Shown in pieces: positions 1,790 to 6,836 of a stretch of 6,836 bases of DNA. Source of the stretch: a virus (lineage: Duplodnaviria; Heunggongvirae; Uroviricota; Caudoviricetes). The DNA is taken from the IMG/VR virus record IMGVR_UViG_2547132127_000012, one strand, 5' to 3'. A program made the position numbers and the translations under genes. Each line of letters begins with the position of its first letter. Positions within the stretch are counted from its first letter, which is position 1. The notes under the pieces were generated by a model, which was not told the DNA's origin, made no database searches, and saw only the letters and a list, made by a program, of their open reading frames with translations.

Positions 1790-2039
1790 TCGTATTGAAG
1801 AAATGGCATGGGCTCGCCACTACCAGCAGATCGTTCGTGAAGAAAAAGAAACGGAACTGGCGGACGACCTGGAAAAAGGTCTGCCTCAGCACCTGTTTGA
1901 ATCGCTCTGCATCGACCATTTGCAACGCCACGGTGCCAATAAACAGGCAATCAGCCACGCATTTGATGATGATGTTGAGTTTCAGGAGCGCATGGCAGAA
2001 CACATCCGGTACATGGCTGAAACCATTGCCCACCACTAG
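1767..2039 (+). CDS. Hypothetical 90-aa acidic protein, translationally coupled to the upstream ORF
   Basis: GGAG at 1754-1757, 9 nt before ATG 1767. Start overlaps the upstream stop (1787-1789) by 23 nt. No motif recognised. Confidence 0.5.
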
Positions 2040-2068
2040 GTTGATATTGATTTGGAGGACTAAAATCT

Positions 2069-3166
2069 ATGGCGCTTTTTCAACGAGCAATAAACACACA
2101 GGCCTATCTAAAAGCAGGAATTATGGGGTTTGCTGGCGACGGCAAAACCTACACAGCAAGCGAACTGGCTATTGGTCTGGTAATGCTTATGCGGCAACGG
2201 GGAATTGAAGCTGGTAACCGCCCGGTAATGTTTCTGGACACAGAAACAGGCTCTGACTGGGTTAAACCCCGCTTTGATGCGGAAAATATCGAATTATTTA
2301 CGGCAAAAACCCGCTCGTTTGTTGATCTGCTTGAAGCCATTAATGAAGCGGAAAGCAGCGGTTCCGTAATGATCATCGACTCCATCAGTCACTTCTGGAC
2401 CGGATTATGCGACGAGTATGCCAGACGCCGAAACCGTAAACGAGGACTGGAATTTTCAGGCTGGGCGTGGCTCAAACAGGAGTGGCGACGCTTTACCGAT
2501 CGATTTGTTAACAGTCAGGCGCACATTATTATGTGCGGGCGTGCAGGATATGAGTATGACTTTTTCGAAGGTGATGATGGCAAACGCCAGTTGGCAAAAA
2601 CCGGTATAAAAATGAAAGCAGAAACAGAAACCGGTTATGAACCCTCCATCCTGATCCAGATGGAGAAGCAAATGAACATAGAAACCGGTCAGGTGTGGCG
2701 CACCGCCAGAATACTAAAAGATCGCTCCACCCGTATTGATGGACAGGTATTTTCAAACCCAACATTTAAAAACTTTCTTCCTCATATCGAGTTTCTTAAC
2801 CTGGGAGGTGAACACCCCGGCATCGATACCTCACGGGATAACAGTGAATTATTTGCCAACGACGGTACACCGACATGGCTAAAAGAAAAGCGTGCAAAAG
2901 AAATCGCACTTGATGAAATTATCGAGTTGCTCAACAAGCACCATGGGGGCACCAGTAACGACGCCAAACGCGCAAAAGCTGATTTGCTGGAAAAAACATT
3001 CACCTCCCGCTCATGGGAAAGAATCAAAGGTATGGACTGGCCGACAATCAAAGCTGGTCGTAATGCACTATGGATTGAACTGGAAGGCGTTGAATATGCA
3101 TTCCCGGATCCACAAACACAAAACGAAACGCAACAAGCAGGATACGATGAGAATATTCCGGTGTAA
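2069..3166 (+). CDS. RecA-fold P-loop NTPase (AAA_24/Sak4-like topology) with a ~250-aa C-terminal extension of unknown function
   Basis: GGAGG at 2054-2058, 10 nt before ATG 2069. Walker A GFAGDGKT (aa 20-27), acidic strand motif FLDTETG (aa ~55-61), Walker B VMIIDS (aa ~101-106). This Walker A / D-T-E / hhhhDS order is typical of RecA-like and AAA_24 phage ATPases, not ABC or classical AAA+. Family assignment is from motifs, unverified. Confidence 0.8.
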   Translation: MALFQRAINTQAYLKAGIMGFAGDGKTYTASELAIGLVMLMRQRGIEAGNRPVMFLDTETGSDWVKPRFDAENIELFTAKTRSFVDLLEAINEAESSGSVMIIDSISHFWTGLCDEYARRRNRKRGLEFSGWAWLKQEWRRFTDRFVNSQAHIIMCGRAGYEYDFFEGDDGKRQLAKTGIKMKAETETGYEPSILIQMEKQMNIETGQVWRTARILKDRSTRIDGQVFSNPTFKNFLPHIEFLNLGGEHPGIDTSRDNSELFANDGTPTWLKEKRAKEIALDEIIELLNKHHGGTSNDAKRAKADLLEKTFTSRSWERIKGMDWPTIKAGRNALWIELEGVEYAFPDPQTQNETQQAGYDENIPV

Positions 3167-3216
3167 AACCAAGTGCATTTTGAACACGGTTTTTGAAAAT
3201 ATTAATGGAGGTGTTC

Positions 3217-3405
3217 ATGTATAAAATTACAGCCACTATTGAAAAGGAAGGTGGTTCTCCTACCAGCTGGACAAGATATTCAAAATCTAAACTAACGAAA
3301 TCAGAATGCGAAAAAATGCTCTCAGGGAAAAAAGAAGCAGGCGTTTCCAGAGAGCAGAAAGTAAAACTGATAAATTTTAATTGCGAGAAACTTCTGTCCT
3401 CGTGA
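3217..3405 (+). CDS. Hypothetical 62-aa lysine-rich small protein (MYKITATIEKEGG...)
   Basis: GGAGG at 3207-3211, 5 nt before ATG 3217. Lies 50 nt after the ATPase stop in an AT-rich segment and ends 36 nt before the IS left end. I suspect, but cannot verify, similarity to small Rac-prophage proteins of the ydaC type. Confidence 0.5.
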   Translation: MYKITATIEKEGGSPTSWTRYSKSKLTKSECEKMLSGKKEAGVSREQKVKLINFNCEKLLSS

Positions 3406-3441
3406 GTTGCATTATATCAAAATTAGAACTTCATAGCTGAT

Positions 3442-3470
3442 TGAGATAGCCTGAGTTTAACGGACACTCC
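3442..3470 (+). repeat. IS left terminal inverted repeat (imperfect)
   Basis: Matches the reverse complement of 4677..4705 at the terminal TGAG and the internal CGGACACT block. Confidence 0.5.
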
Positions 3471-3505
3471 TTCCTGAAATAGAATGGCATCAGAAGGAGC
3501 TAATA

Positions 3506-3808
3506 ATGAGCAGAAAAACCCAACGTTACTCTAAAGAGTTCAAAGCCGAAGCTGTCAGAACGGTTCTTGAAAATCAACTTTCGATCAGTGAAGGCGCTTC
3601 CCGATTATCTCTTCCTGAAGGCACTTTAGGACAATGGGTTACCGCCGCCAGAAAAGGGCTCGGTACTCCTGGTTCCCGCACGGTGGCTGAACTGGAATCT
3701 GAAATTCTGCAACTGCGTAAGGCGTTAAATGAAGCTCGCCTTGAGCGCGATATATTAAAAAAAGCAACAGCGTATTTTGCACAGGAGTCGCTGAAAAATA
3801 CGCGTTAA
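3506..3808 (+). CDS. IS3-family transposase OrfA (helix-turn-helix DNA-binding protein with C-terminal leucine-zipper-like region)
   Basis: AGGAG at 3494-3498, 7 nt before ATG 3506. 100-aa protein; the slippery heptamer lies near its 3' end. Confidence 0.9.
   Translation: MSRKTQRYSKEFKAEAVRTVLENQLSISEGASRLSLPEGTLGQWVTAARKGLGTPGSRTVAELESEILQLRKALNEARLERDILKKATAYFAQESLKNTR
3757..3763 (+). other. Programmed -1 ribosomal frameshift slippery heptamer (A AAA AAA) producing the OrfAB fusion transposase
   Basis: AAAAAAA then G at 3757-3764. In the orfA frame it reads ttA AAA AAA Gca. A -1 slip moves codon starts from 2 mod 3 (orfA) to 1 mod 3, the orfB frame (ATG 3844). This is the standard IS3-family arrangement. 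Confidence 0.6.
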
Positions 3809-3843
3809 TCGAACAATGGCGACAACAATTTCCCATTGAAGCG

Positions 3844-4662
3844 ATGTGTCAGGTATTTGGTGTATCCAGGAGCGGTTATTACAACTGGGTACAGCATGAA
3901 CCCTCAGACAGAAAACAAAGTGATGAGCGGCTAAAACTGGAGATTAAGGTGGCACATATCCGCACTCGCGAAACATATGGAACCCGGCGGCTCCAGACGG
4001 AGCTGGCAGAGAATGGCATCATCGTTGGTCGTGACCGACTGGCATGTCTTCGTAAGGAGCTGAGGCTACGCTGTAAGCAGAAACGCAAGTTCAGAGCGAC
4101 TACGAACCCGAACCACAATCTGCCAGTTGCGCCAAATCTGCTGAACCAGACGTTCGCTCCTACAGCACCAAATCAGGTCTGGGTGGCGGACCTGACGTAT
4201 GTTGCCACACAGGAGGGATGGTTGTACCTCGCTGGCATCAAAGATGTTTATACGTGTGAAATTGTCGGCTACGCCATGGGAGAGCGCATGACAAAAGAGC
4301 TGACAGGTAAAGCCCTGTTTATGGCGCTCAGGAGCCAGCGCCCACCTGCCGGGCTAATCCACCACTCTGATCGAGGTTCACAGTACTGCGCATACGATTA
4401 CCGGGTCATACAGGAGCAGTCTGGTCTGAAAACATCAATGTCGCGTAAAGGTAACTGTTACGACAACGCTCCGATGGAAAGCTTCTGGGGAACGCTGAAA
4501 AATGAGAGCCTGAGCCACTATCGTTTTAATAACCGGGATGAAGCCATCTCAGTAATACGGGAATACATTGAGATTTTCTACAATCGTCAGCGTCGTCACT
4601 CTCGTCTGGGGAATATCTCCCCGGCAGCCTTCAGGGAAAAATATCATCAGATGGCTGCTTAA
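3844..4662 (+). CDS. IS3-family transposase OrfB (DDE catalytic domain); in vivo made mainly as OrfAB by -1 frameshift
   Basis: 272-aa ORF identical to 1..819; lies in the -1 frame relative to orfA. Confidence 0.9.
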   Translation: MCQVFGVSRSGYYNWVQHEPSDRKQSDERLKLEIKVAHIRTRETYGTRRLQTELAENGIIVGRDRLACLRKELRLRCKQKRKFRATTNPNHNLPVAPNLLNQTFAPTAPNQVWVADLTYVATQEGWLYLAGIKDVYTCEIVGYAMGERMTKELTGKALFMALRSQRPPAGLIHHSDRGSQYCAYDYRVIQEQSGLKTSMSRKGNCYDNAPMESFWGTLKNESLSHYRFNNRDEAISVIREYIEIFYNRQRRHSRLGNISPAAFREKYHQMAA

Positions 4663-4676
4663 AAAAAGAACAAATG

Positions 4677-4705
4677 GTAGTGTCCGCTATTGCCAGTACA
4701 CCTCA
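4677..4705 (+). repeat. IS right terminal inverted repeat (imperfect)
   Basis: Reverse complement aligns with 3442..3470. The same sequence ends copy 1 at 834..862. Confidence 0.5.
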
Positions 4706-4727
4706 GATTATTAAAAATCAACCACAC

Positions 4728-4756
4728 CCGCCAGTATTCTGTATATTTACTGGCGG
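4728..4756. repeat. 9-bp perfect inverted repeat (ccgccagta N11 tactggcgg) between the IS right end and xis
   Basis: 4728-4736 ccgccagta is the reverse complement of 4748-4756 tactggcgg; the 11-nt spacer is AT-rich. No downstream T-run, so not a canonical intrinsic terminator. Confidence 0.5.
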
Positions 4757-4778
4757 TCATATCGTGAGAGGTATGGCA

Positions 4779-5060
4779 ATGAATCTTGTGACACTCAAAA
4801 CGTGGGGAAAACTCAGATATCCGGATAACCCACCATCAATATCAACGCTGAGACGATGGGCAAGGAATGGAAACATTTATCCTGCACCTGCACTACACGG
4901 GAGGAGTTACAGGGTGGTTCCGGAGGCTTTCTATATCAACCCAAATAAGGTTGATACCGATATAACACACCATCAGCCTAATGGGCGACAAGGGAGAGAC
5001 AGTCCGTTAATGGAGAAGTTAAAACATGCAGCGGAAAAAATACGATCCCAATTTGCCTAG
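4779..5060 (+). CDS. xis: Excisionase (lambda Xis-like, winged-helix recombination directionality factor)
   Basis: GAGAGG at 4765-4770, 8 nt before ATG 4779. Product MNLVTLKTWGKLRYPDNPPSISTLRRWARNGNIYPAPALHGRSYRV... resembles lambda Xis (MYLTLQEWNARQRRPRSLETVRRWVRECRIFPPP...). Overlaps int by 35 nt, as in lambda xis-int. The track's longer ORF start (4674) lies inside the IS and is rejected. Confidence 0.7.
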   Translation: MNLVTLKTWGKLRYPDNPPSISTLRRWARNGNIYPAPALHGRSYRVVPEAFYINPNKVDTDITHHQPNGRQGRDSPLMEKLKHAAEKIRSQFA

Positions 5061-6102
5061 AAACTTAACATATCGAAGGAGAGACAAAGCATATTACTGG
5101 CGCAACCCTCTGACGAAAGAAGAATTTACACTAGGTAAAATTTCAAGAAGAGATGCAGTAGCGCAGGCAATTGAAGCAAATCATTATATATACAAAAACT
5201 ACTCTCCTGCTGCCCTAATTGAAAAGCTTAAAGGGGTCGACTCATTTACTATGGCAGGCTGGATTGAACGTTACAAAACGATTCTTATAAGGAGAAAAGC
5301 GTCCAGAAATACTTATAAAACTCGGGTAAATCAACTGGAGACAATAAAAGAAAAATTAGGAGGGGTTTTACTGACAGAAATAACCACTCGCCATATCGCC
5401 GAGTTTCTTGATTTGTGGATTGAAGGAGGGAAAAACACGATGGCAGGATCAATGCGTTCTGTGTTATCTGATATGTTCCGCGAAGCCATTGTTGAAGGAC
5501 GTATATCTCAAAATCCAGTAACGCCAACAAGAGCACCGAAAATAGTAGTTACAAGAGAACGGCTGAAACTAAAGACATACAACTGCATCAGGGAGGCAGC
5601 AGATCAACTTCCGGCATGGTTCCCATTAGCTATGGACTTAGCCCTTGTAACAGGACAACGTCGCGAAGACATAACGAATATGCGGTTCAGTGATATTTAT
5701 GATGATCGTCTCCACATCAGGCAAATTAAGACAGGAATGATGATTGCTATCCCCCTGTCACTCAGCCTTCCTGTCGCTGGTTTACGACTTGGTGCAGTAG
5801 TTGAACAGTGCCGCATGGTAAGTAGGGGGGATTATCTAATCAGTGCCGGGATTAGAAAAAACAGCCCTGACGGCAGCATTCACCCGGACGGCCTGACAAA
5901 GAAATTTGTCGCAGCCAGAAAATTAACAGGTATCCTGTTCAGTGAAAACCCACCAACTTTTCACGAAATCAGAAGCCTGGCTGGACGATTGTACAAAGAA
6001 ATATGTGGAGAAGAATTTGCTCAGCGTCTACTTGGCCACACATCGGAGAAGACAACAAAAATGTATCTTGATGAGAGAGAAAAAACGTACTTACTGCTCT
6101 GA
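5026..6102 (+). CDS. int: Lambda-family tyrosine integrase (site-specific recombinase)
   Basis: GGAG at 5012-5015, 10 nt before ATG. N-terminal arm-binding region ([30 protein letters not shown]) parallels lambda Int. Catalytic motifs present: [10 protein letters not shown] (Arg), [11 protein letters not shown] (His-x-x-Arg), [13 protein letters not shown] (His...Tyr nucleophile). Confidence 0.9.
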
Positions 6103-6118
6103 TTTTAACGTAAATGGA

Positions 6119-6148
6119 TTGTTAAATGTATTTTGGTTGTGATATAAC
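6119..6148 (+). promoter_or_regulatory. Candidate sigma-70 promoter with extended -10, firing toward the sRNA locus
   Basis: -35 TTGTTA (6119-6124), 18-nt spacer, TGa + TATAAC (6140-6148). Predicted start near 6155-6157. Hexamer prediction only. Confidence 0.3.
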
Positions 6149-6180
6149 CAAAAAAGACCGGAATACAGAAATTCGAGTAA

Positions 6181-6200
6181 ATTTCGGGGAATTTCGGGGA
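6181..6200. repeat. Perfect tandem direct repeat, 2 x 10 bp (atttcgggga atttcgggga), with a degenerate third unit just upstream (6171-6180)
   Basis: Read directly. It sits between the int stop and the sdsR 3' end, where lambda-type P' arm Int-binding sites would be expected. Confidence 0.6.
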
Positions 6201-6233
6201 GACGTTTGCAACTAATTGATTTTAAATACAATT

Positions 6234-6267
6234 AAAAAAAGACCGAATACGATTCCTGTATTCGGTC
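6234..6267 (-). terminator. Intrinsic terminator of SdsR (10-bp perfect stem, 7-nt loop, then U7 on the minus strand)
   Basis: gaccgaatac (6241-6250) pairs with gtattcggtc (6258-6267); loop gattcct. A7 at 6234-6240 on the plus strand is U7 on the minus strand directly after the hairpin. Confidence 0.8.
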
Positions 6268-6336
6268 CAGGGAAATGGCTCTTGGGAGAGAGCCGTGCGC
6301 TAAAAGTTGGCATTAATGCAGGCTTAGTTGCCTTGC
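6235..6336 (-). ncRNA. sdsR: SdsR (RyeB) small regulatory RNA, RpoS-dependent, ~102 nt
   Basis: Minus strand reads GCAAGGCAACTAAGCCTGCATTAATGCCAACTTTTAGCGCACGGCTCTCTCCCAAGAGCCATTTCCCTGGACCGAATACAGGAATCGTATTCGGTC then a T-run, which matches my recollection of enterobacterial SdsR. Internal hairpin ggctct...agagcc, terminal terminator, sigma-S-type -10 just upstream. Confidence 0.8.
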
Positions 6337-6339
6337 CCT

Positions 6340-6375
6340 TTAAGAATAGATGACGACGCCAGGTTTTCCAGTTTG
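6340..6375 (-). promoter_or_regulatory. Sigma-S-type promoter of sdsR
   Basis: On the minus strand, -14 to -4 relative to the proposed start (6336) reads TCTATTCTTAA, close to the sigma-S extended -10 consensus TCTATACTTAA including the -13 C. No clear -35, as is usual for sigma-S promoters. Confidence 0.5.
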
Positions 6376-6423
6376 CGTGCAAAATGGTCAATAAAAAGCG
6401 CGGTGGTCATCAGCTTAAATGTT

Positions 6424-6465
6424 AAAAACCGCCCGTTCTGGTGAAAGAACTGAGGCGGTTTTTTT
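6424..6465. terminator. Bidirectional intrinsic terminator between yebY (minus) and the sRNA locus
   Basis: Stem ccgcc (6429-6433) / ggcgg (6454-6458) with extension gttc/gaac, flanked by A5 (6424-6428) and T7 (6459-6465), so hairpin plus U-run is present on both strands. It lies 30 nt beyond the yebY stop. Confidence 0.75.
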
Positions 6466-6494
6466 ATTGGAAATCAAAAGGCTATTTTAGGTAA

Positions 6495-6836
6495 TTAACA
6501 GAGTTTTTCAGCTCGTTCTATAAACGGTGCCAGACTCATTTTTTCGCCGGGATTGTTAGGATCATCAATCTGAATCACCGAAATGGGTTGGGCATTGGTC
6601 TTCCCACTGGCAACTTCCTTTTGTGCGATATCGTTTAAAGGATACTGCACGAGGGTACTTGGGTTGATGACATACAAAGCATTACCCGGTCGGCAAGTCA
6701 GCATTACCTCTTCGCGATTAAACGCCCATTTGTCTTTACCCACTTCAAAACGACTCACGGTTATCACCTGTGGAGCCGCCAGCGCCGCTGCAGAACTGGT
6801 GAGTAACAGAAACGCCAGAATACTTTTTTTCATCAT
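6495..6836 (-). CDS. yebY: Small exported protein with Sec signal peptide ([20 protein letters not shown]|APQ), probably host protein YebY (DUF2511)
   Basis: 113-aa ORF with a typical n/h/c signal peptide and AxA cleavage motif. Its position next to sdsR/ryeA matches my recollection of the E. coli pphA-ryeA/sdsR-yebY neighbourhood. The ATG is at the window edge (6834-6836), so upstream signals are not visible. Confidence 0.8.

Follow-up and report, generated by a model that had tools for sequence, protein, structure and literature searches.

The sdsR locus and its prophage junction

We analysed a 6,836-nucleotide stretch of viral DNA (IMG/VR record IMGVR_UViG_2547132127_000012, Caudoviricetes; the whole stretch is called the window here) in which int, the gene of a tyrosine integrase, is followed by the convergent small RNA gene sdsR (also known as ryeB) and by yebY. 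SdsR, which is conserved and depends on RpoS, regulates porins, TolC and MutS and is toxic when unopposed, and RyeA (also called SraC), which is made from the other strand, is its cis-antisense antagonist. Positions 2026-6836 of the window match Shigella flexneri 5 str. 8401 (CP000266.1) with 100% identity, and the exact Int protein is encoded adjoining yebY in S. flexneri genomes; int homologues with 38-80% identity adjoin sdsR in 28 other species. Taken together, the analysis makes it likely that a degraded Rac-like prophage, lodged in the sdsR terminator of S. flexneri, supplies an outward-facing extended -10 sigma-70 promoter from which RyeA starts near position 6155. The coordinates of all features are collected in the table below.

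The sdsR gene itself is readily recognised. The SdsR covariance model RF00111 matches the minus strand from 6333 to 6234, downstream of yebY, with 118 bits against a gathering score of 38, and the start at 6336 was transferred from K-12 via a gap-free match between the K-12 locus (L001, 1501-1768) and window 6233-6500, a block that is 98.5% identical to K-12-type genomes. With this start, the minus-strand sequence TCTATTCTTAA (6350..6340) occupies exactly -14 to -4, where a reading of the letters alone (below, the sequence-only reading) had placed it as a fit to the RpoS dependence of SdsR; both the coordinates and the published sigma-S features agree with that proposal. As given by Frohlich et al. 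(PMC3333887), these features are -13C, -14T, -8C, an A/T-rich discriminator and a 16-bp spacer, and the window promoter has all the RpoS-selectivity features described there, its TGGAAA being placed 16 bp further upstream. Of 118 species loci, 54 have an identical 11-mer, and its -13C is nearly universal. RpoS dependence of sdsR has been shown in Salmonella and E. coli (PMC3333887; PMC6610125), and in K-12 the start was mapped and the -10 (AGAATA on the plus strand) inactivated by mutation by Choi et al. 2019 (PMC6610125). The minus-strand site is this published, mutationally validated sdsR promoter and was established already.

Everything between the int stop codon and the last nucleotides of sdsR is phage DNA. 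All complete E. coli genomes examined (5426/5426) match the window from 6233 rightwards, the int side is present in 228 of the 5426, and in ~236 genomes the K-12-type left flank is separated from sdsR, i.e. the site is occupied. The intact lysogen OkiPb01676 carries a ~41 kb prophage between pphA and sdsR, and its pphA-side junction reads as an unchanged K-12 ryeA promoter, then agagaccgaaCacgattcctgt, then phage DNA (tttcgtcaac...). The free phage PP818812 has an uninterrupted phage attachment site (attP) in which an int-proximal arm 98% identical to window 6090-6259 passes directly into tttcgtcaac, the other arm. Positions 6103 to ~6248 are the int-proximal arm of the attachment site of a Rac-like prophage. 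Phage DNA reaches at least to T6248 and host DNA is present by 6260, with the crossover placed within 6249-6259; the last 14-25 nt of sdsR are phage-supplied. The marks of a prophage junction are all present, namely an adjoining int, a core common to both prophage ends and attP, repeats in both arms and a consensus site for integration host factor (IHF). The plus-strand promoter candidate lies in this prophage DNA, and its suspected phage origin is borne out by the E. coli genome matches, the free-phage attP and the reciprocal lysogen junction.

Within the arm, the repeats preceding the core are probable Int arm-binding sites, judged by their sequence; similar repeats occur in the other attP arm (lysogen locus L003, 21150-21172, and phage PP818812, L004), and they are lost in remnants without int (3.7 versus 0.9 hits). 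The copy number of AATTTCGGGG is 1 or 2 among S. flexneri genomes with an identical integrase (L126, L127 and L132 versus L128, L130, L131 and L133), which shifts yebY by 10 bp. The motif YAANNNNTTGATW is found at the place of the IHF site in related arms. The pseudo-core belongs to a direct repeat (6142-6166 and 6226-6250, 72% identity) and is kept in arms that retain int. This repeat pairs the candidate -10 and an A-run/GACCGGAATAC with TACAAT and the real core, and may have originated from an older junction that the phage arm took up.

Several smaller observations concern the attachment site. The phage-supplied half of the sdsR terminator (6234-6248, compared with 1502-1516 of the K-12 locus) forms an A-U pair where K-12 has G-U and gives sdsR an uninterrupted U7 tail versus UCUUUUU in K-12; the predicted hairpin energy is -15.8 kcal/mol for both. 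Termination efficiency, and hence read-through, could differ between the phage-supplied and K-12 terminators. In S. flexneri SFBU1023 the terminator reads GACCAACATGATTCCTGTATTGGGTC, with several changes, and CCAGGAAATGG without one G; either true mutations or sequencing errors at homopolymers could account for this. PP818812 is deposited as 'Actinobacillus phage vB_Apl-pPE4', its integrase and attP are ~98% identical to the Shigella/E. coli prophage arm, and the target of its attP is the sdsR terminator of enterobacteria; that Actinobacillus is its host, as stated, seems doubtful.

Table. Features of the int-sdsR-yebY region in window coordinates
Feature	Position	Strand	Basis
int, tyrosine integrase, 358 aa	5026..6102	+	open reading frame list; Pfam Phage_integrase and Arm-DNA-bind domains
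Candidate -35, TTGTTA (4/6 consensus positions, 18 bp upstream of -10)	6119..6124	+	sequence
Candidate extended -10, TGTGaTATAAC (TRTG at -17 to -14; TG 6140-6141; TATAAC 6143-6148)	6138..6148	+	sequence
Pseudo-core CAAAAAAGACCGGAATAC, diverged copy of the real core with A-run	6149..6166	.	direct repeat
Predicted RyeA/SraC start	6154..6157	+	predicted, 6-9 nt downstream of -10
Predicted RyeA/SraC transcript	6155..6465	+	RF00101; 3' ends from K-12 +261 to +270; predicted 5' end
Arm-type repeats, GAAATTCGAG then two tandem AATTTCGGGG (6180-6189, 6190-6199)	6168..6199	.	sequence
Alternative promoter-like site, TTTGCA-16-TACAAT	6205..6232	+	stock scan; position weight matrix rank 7
IHF consensus site AATCAATTAGTTG (WATCARNNNNTTR)	6209..6221	-	pattern match
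Attachment-site core, 3' half of sdsR terminator	6234..6259	.	comparison of window, free-phage attP, OkiPb01676 junction and K-12
sdsR (RyeB) small RNA gene	6235..6336	-	Rfam RF00111; ends transferred from K-12 data from rapid amplification of cDNA ends (PMC6610125)
RpoS-type sdsR promoter	6340..6370	-	sequence; published features; species conservation
sdsR promoter parts: -35 TGGAAA 6370..6365; -14T 6350; -13C 6349; -10 TATTCT 6348..6343; discriminator TAA 6342..6340		-	
Bidirectional intrinsic terminator common to RyeA (+) and yebY (-)	6424..6465	.	-20.6 kcal/mol, z -2.85; A-run left, U-run right
yebY	6495-6836	-	open reading frame list

A conserved promoter-like module in the integrase-proximal arm

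The body of RyeA is present in the window, where the SraC_RyeA model RF00101 matches positions 6230-6374 of the plus strand with 179 bits, antisense over sdsR. In K-12, ryeA is transcribed from a promoter whose -10, TATGGT, was mutated to CTCGAG by Choi et al. (PMC6610125), and this -10 and the start are located 37-50 nt to the left of the position equivalent to window 6233. Comparison with the prophage-free locus, as the sequence-only reading had suggested, indicated that in the window the K-12 ryeA promoter has been cut off from the RyeA body. By direct reading, neither the K-12-type promoter (CTGGAC...TGTGTTATGGT) nor its leader was found in window 6103-6232, and homology to K-12 starts at 6233. 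When 29 nt of the K-12 promoter and leader were searched for exactly in the fetched loci, five E. coli loci were the only matches. The window also lacks the first 37 nt of K-12 RyeA, and in OkiPb01676 the K-12-type promoter is found ~41 kb off, beside pphA. The RyeA body is thus left without its original promoter, and therefore what now drives the antisense RNA is the right question.

The proposed answer was a plus-strand site written as TTGTTA-N18-TGaTATAAC. Its span, 6119-6148, is right, its hexamers are separated by an 18-bp spacer and its -35 does begin 17 nt after the int stop codon (6100-6102), but the notation read literally is 3 nt off. The candidate has the TG, the bases TATAA from -12 to -8, and C at -7. 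When scored with our own approximate sigma-70 matrix, it ranks second of 13,618 window positions with 10.7 bits, compared with 7.3 bits for the validated K-12 ryeA promoter in the same matrix. A stock promoter scan did not list the candidate because that scan requires T at -7. Two other readings of the same segment were rejected: a minus-strand promoter with TAACAT as a -10 facing int, where the window reads TAACAA and offers no matching -35, and a terminator formed by the 8-bp inverted repeat 6131-6138/6146-6153, whose stem is AT-rich, lacks a U-run and is not conserved.

It is conservation, not sequence score, that raises the plus-strand candidate above chance. Scanning one genome per species gave 120 sdsR loci, and the pattern GTAAA-N4-WTGTTA-N-TGTGRTATAAS was found gap-free in 26 of them, from 25 species, at 73-94 bp from the core. 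The -35 position reads WTGTKW (ATGTTA, TTGTGA or TTGTTA) at a fixed, ungapped spacing in these 25 species and in 27 unique phage arms, and TGnTATAA is nearly invariant across the module family. Across the 26 loci, the -35 block and TGnTATAA have a high information content, which falls to approximately zero in the spacer between them; such a profile, with two conserved blocks at a fixed spacing and a free spacer, is what a promoter would be expected to show. Over 116 species, the best plus-strand promoter score is highest at 80-90 bp upstream of the core. The same arrangement is seen in phage genomes, as five of six unique true attP sites in IMG/VR carry the module and 65 of 71 int-adjacent junctions carry either this motif or the K-12-type motif at an equal distance. 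The remnants that have lost int provide a further contrast. In these (n=16), pairwise identity is 71% over the 32 nt upstream of the TG, against 55% for the next 32 nt upstream and 57% for the arm, whereas in int-bearing loci all three segments are 69-74% identical. The module thus outlasts the recombination function, which argues for a function at the level of the host.

The length of the antisense RNA can be compared with published data. The K-12 RyeA 3' ends transfer to 6456-6465, within the hairpin flanked by A- and U-runs, in line with the earlier suggestion that the antisense transcript ends at a bidirectional terminator. With the predicted start, RyeA would be 302-311 nt long compared with 261-272 nt in K-12, i.e. 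~40 nt longer, and the candidate -10 sits 40 bp upstream of the K-12-equivalent position. According to Frohlich et al. 2012 (PMC3333887), SraC of Shigella and Salmonella is ~35 nt longer than in K-12 and peaks earlier in growth, and a 'potential -10 box' is placed ~35 nt further upstream than in K-12. S. flexneri carries exactly the window sequence, and the candidate most likely explains the long Shigella SraC seen on northern blots. The K-12 ryeA promoter is likewise of the extended -10 type and is read by sigma-70 holoenzyme in vitro (PMC6610125). A start-site paper on K. pneumoniae gives no SraC start, only the Rfam coordinates of SraC.

Several points weigh against reading the module as the RyeA promoter. 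The most conserved base of the sigma-70 -10 hexamer is the T at -7, and this position is C, not T, in the window and in 25 of the 27 unique phage arms; this C could mean a weak promoter, or a different purpose behind the conservation. (These 27 arms are from L134-L253; in int-less host remnants, position -7 of TGnTATAAn is C, G or A, and it is T in neither set.) The score is matched by 185 of 2000 dinucleotide-preserving shuffles (~9%) of the arm, which is 31% G+C (p ~0.09), so that with C at -7 the sequence alone is insufficient. As to the conservation, membership in the family was set by the presence of TGnTATAAn, so retention of the -10 is ascertained and only the upstream block is an unbiased measure; in addition, the species loci are related by descent, so the counts overstate independence. 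The Salmonella comparison covered subsp. diarizonae and one Salmonella prophage. We infer that the '-10 box' of Frohlich et al. is TATAAC. Finally, lysogeny of PhiW104 at this site changes the 5' part of ryeA and leads to less RyeA and more RyeB (PMC7380047), suggesting that phage-supplied 5' ends are not necessarily equivalent to the resident one.

From the conserved pattern we infer that the module fires, that transcription starts just downstream of it and that it acts as the RyeA promoter. The proposed sequence of events is as follows. Integration swapped the last 14-25 nt of sdsR for the phage copy and cut off the resident ryeA promoter along with the first 37 nt of RyeA. The arm promoter (TTGTTA, 18 bp, TGTGaTATAAC; start near 6155) would then transcribe a RyeA/SraC RNA ~40 nt longer than that of K-12. 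This RNA would pass through the arm-type Int sites, the IHF site and the core, continue antisense across the whole of sdsR and end at the terminator shared with yebY. The new 5' leader would comprise ~78 nt and contain the arm sites. The starts at ~6155 (plus) and 6336 (minus) would be convergent and 181 bp apart, compared with 141 bp in K-12. In K-12, sigma-70 transcription of ryeA interferes with transcription of sdsR, and the two RNAs pair and are cut by RNase III (PMC6610125; PMC3333887). The same antagonism would be expected here, through transcriptional interference and RNase III cleavage of the RyeA-SdsR duplex. It had been suggested that the prophage in this way controls the antisense partner of a host regulatory RNA. 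A phage-derived promoter is supported by the data, but the element is a remnant riddled with insertion sequences (IS), and 'fixed phage-derived promoter' is therefore a better description.

Other explanations for the antisense RNA

The conserved block might not be a promoter at all. It is located within attP, with int on one side and the arm-type sites on the other, it is directly followed by a pseudo-core copying the real core, its conserved C at -7 is odd for a sigma-70 -10, and it is not significant by sequence alone. All of this would fit an architectural or protein-binding element of the arm, bound by Int or by a host or phage accessory factor, with the antisense RNA starting elsewhere. 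Such an element would not be expected to persist once its recombinase is gone, yet in the 16 int-less remnants the block retains 71% identity compared with 55-57% for arm sites and flanks. Its conservation profile is also promoter-like, and the size of Shigella SraC, as reported by Frohlich et al., fits a start just downstream. We consider an arm element of this kind unlikely, though it is the strongest of the alternatives.

The remaining explanations accept an antisense transcript and place its origin elsewhere. One is that it has no dedicated promoter and is processed from read-through of int, the upstream IS600 or other prophage transcripts. Transcription of prophage int genes is normally low, which speaks against this. 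We found no plus-strand intrinsic terminator between the int stop codon and the sdsR region, and K-12 RyeA carries a 5' monophosphate (PMC6610125), so processing does occur at the locus. Read-through nevertheless leaves unexplained why a spacing-constrained module is found in loci without int or any upstream gene in that orientation. Moreover, the published Shigella band (PMC3333887) is discrete, growth-phase regulated like a sigma-70 transcript and anticorrelated with SdsR. Read-through as the source seems improbable. Of nearly the same low probability, or slightly lower, is a start near 6239, in the A-run of the sdsR terminator, from the core-proximal TTTGCA-16-TACAAT. This site is the sole plus-strand match of the stock scan in 5900-6600 and has A at -11 and T at -7. 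It is not conserved, however; related arms read TACAAG, ATAAGA or similar at this place, where it overlaps the IHF site. A start there would make RyeA ~44 nt shorter than in K-12, whereas the Shigella SraC described by Frohlich et al. is ~35 nt longer. We rejected it as the main promoter on these two grounds, the lack of conservation and the wrong transcript length.

Proposed replacement of RyeA promoters at the sdsR terminator

The arm promoter of the Shigella prophage would be a further instance of a phenomenon already described (Balbontin et al. 2008, J Bacteriol 190:4075; Frohlich et al. 2012), the remodelling of ryeA by prophage integration in ryeB/sdsR. PhiW104 and other islands integrate in the last 23 bp of ryeB in Salmonella (PMC7380047, summarising Balbontin et al. 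2008). The target is the same, the 3' half of the sdsR terminator, internal to ryeA; in both cases phage DNA replaces the 5' part of ryeA, and RyeA and RyeB levels change. The integrases of the Salmonella elements are homologous to the one studied here, and the prophage ZC-S1_prp has the same arm module with 83% identity. The differences are the host, here Shigella/E. coli, and the element, here a Rac-like prophage that IS600 has degraded in Shigella. The long SraC of Shigella and Salmonella (PMC3333887) is probably the very transcript predicted here; in the accessible part of that paper, its length is treated as species variation of the promoter, with no link to a prophage attachment arm. The arrangement also resembles integration into tRNA genes, where the att site restores the displaced segment of the gene and the target stays functional; the restored segment here is half of the sdsR terminator. 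Unlike a tRNA gene, this target is transcribed on both strands, so that the phage would also need to provide an antisense promoter and 5' end.

The K-12 ryeA promoter itself shares several properties with the candidate. It belongs to the sigma-70 promoters with an extended -10 (TGTGtTATGGT), its -35 is poor, it is convergent with the sdsR promoter, its transcript ends at the same yebY-shared terminator, and it too originates from an integrase-proximal arm. The sequences are unrelated, though: TATGGT of K-12 derives from the last codons of a dead int, whereas TATAAC lies in a 45-bp non-coding module behind a live int, and the distance from start to junction is 37 nt in K-12 compared with ~78 nt here. 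The sdsR-adjacent integrases, which form one family, have three solutions at the same place: a separate module, TGGTATAA made from the int codons Leu-Val-stop, and TGTTATGGTTTAG made from Tyr-Val-Met-Val-stop (the K-12 type).

In an alignment, the K-12 ryeA promoter region (L001, 1395-1460) matches the last ~20 codons (ending ...KKYLDARGAEYVMV and stop) of intact sdsR-targeting integrases of other genera, at six loci (L013, L046, L054, L072, L117 and L120). The integrase reading frame is destroyed in the K-12 region. On this evidence the K-12 'prophage-free' locus is an older remnant and its ryeA promoter the fossil 3' end of an int gene, possibly a new observation. We found no statement of this in the literature searched; Balbontin et al. 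2008 may hold one. A 'native' K-12 promoter that is itself integrase-derived is a caveat to any contrast between prophage and native promoters.

These patterns suggest a broader view, to which we give about even chances. Elements integrating in the sdsR terminator would carry, in their int-proximal arm, a selected replacement promoter for RyeA, either as the 45-bp module or within the last int codons (L-V-stop, CTGGTATAA; Y-V-M-V-stop, TATGTTATGGTTTAG). Many 'host' ryeA promoters of Enterobacteriaceae, including that of K-12, would have been exapted from what such elements left behind, and RyeA would be an antitoxin-like partner that phages have supplied repeatedly to a core small RNA. If the RyeA promoter is swapped each time the hot spot is occupied, the timing and level of SdsR would be strain-specific and set by mobile DNA, with consequences for stress-induced mutagenesis, envelope composition and drug efflux. 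In the Shigella case, the main gain is that a prophage attachment arm would explain the longer, earlier-peaking SraC described in the Frohlich study. Promoters in or behind int offer a concrete example, open to testing, of a phage that repairs a bidirectional RNA locus on both strands, and this pattern of replacement and exaptation is the part worth following up.

The part of the window left of int contains xis, an IS600-type IS3 element, ralR/RalA, an AAA_24 gene, a recE fragment and a second IS600 copy. It belongs to a Rac-like lambdoid prophage that IS elements have degraded. The two IS600-like copies of the IS3 family, at 1-863 and 3442-4700 (orfA 3506-3808; orfB 3844-4662 and 1-819), break up the early-left region of the prophage that holds the recE fragment (725-1789) and the AAA_24 gene (2069-3166). 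Within window 3223-3440, the RalA antitoxin RNA is found on the minus strand at 3401..3223 (Rfam, 216 bits), opposite ralR, and the same sigma-70 matrix picks out an extended -10, TGATATAAT, at 3419..3411, just upstream of the RalA 5' end.

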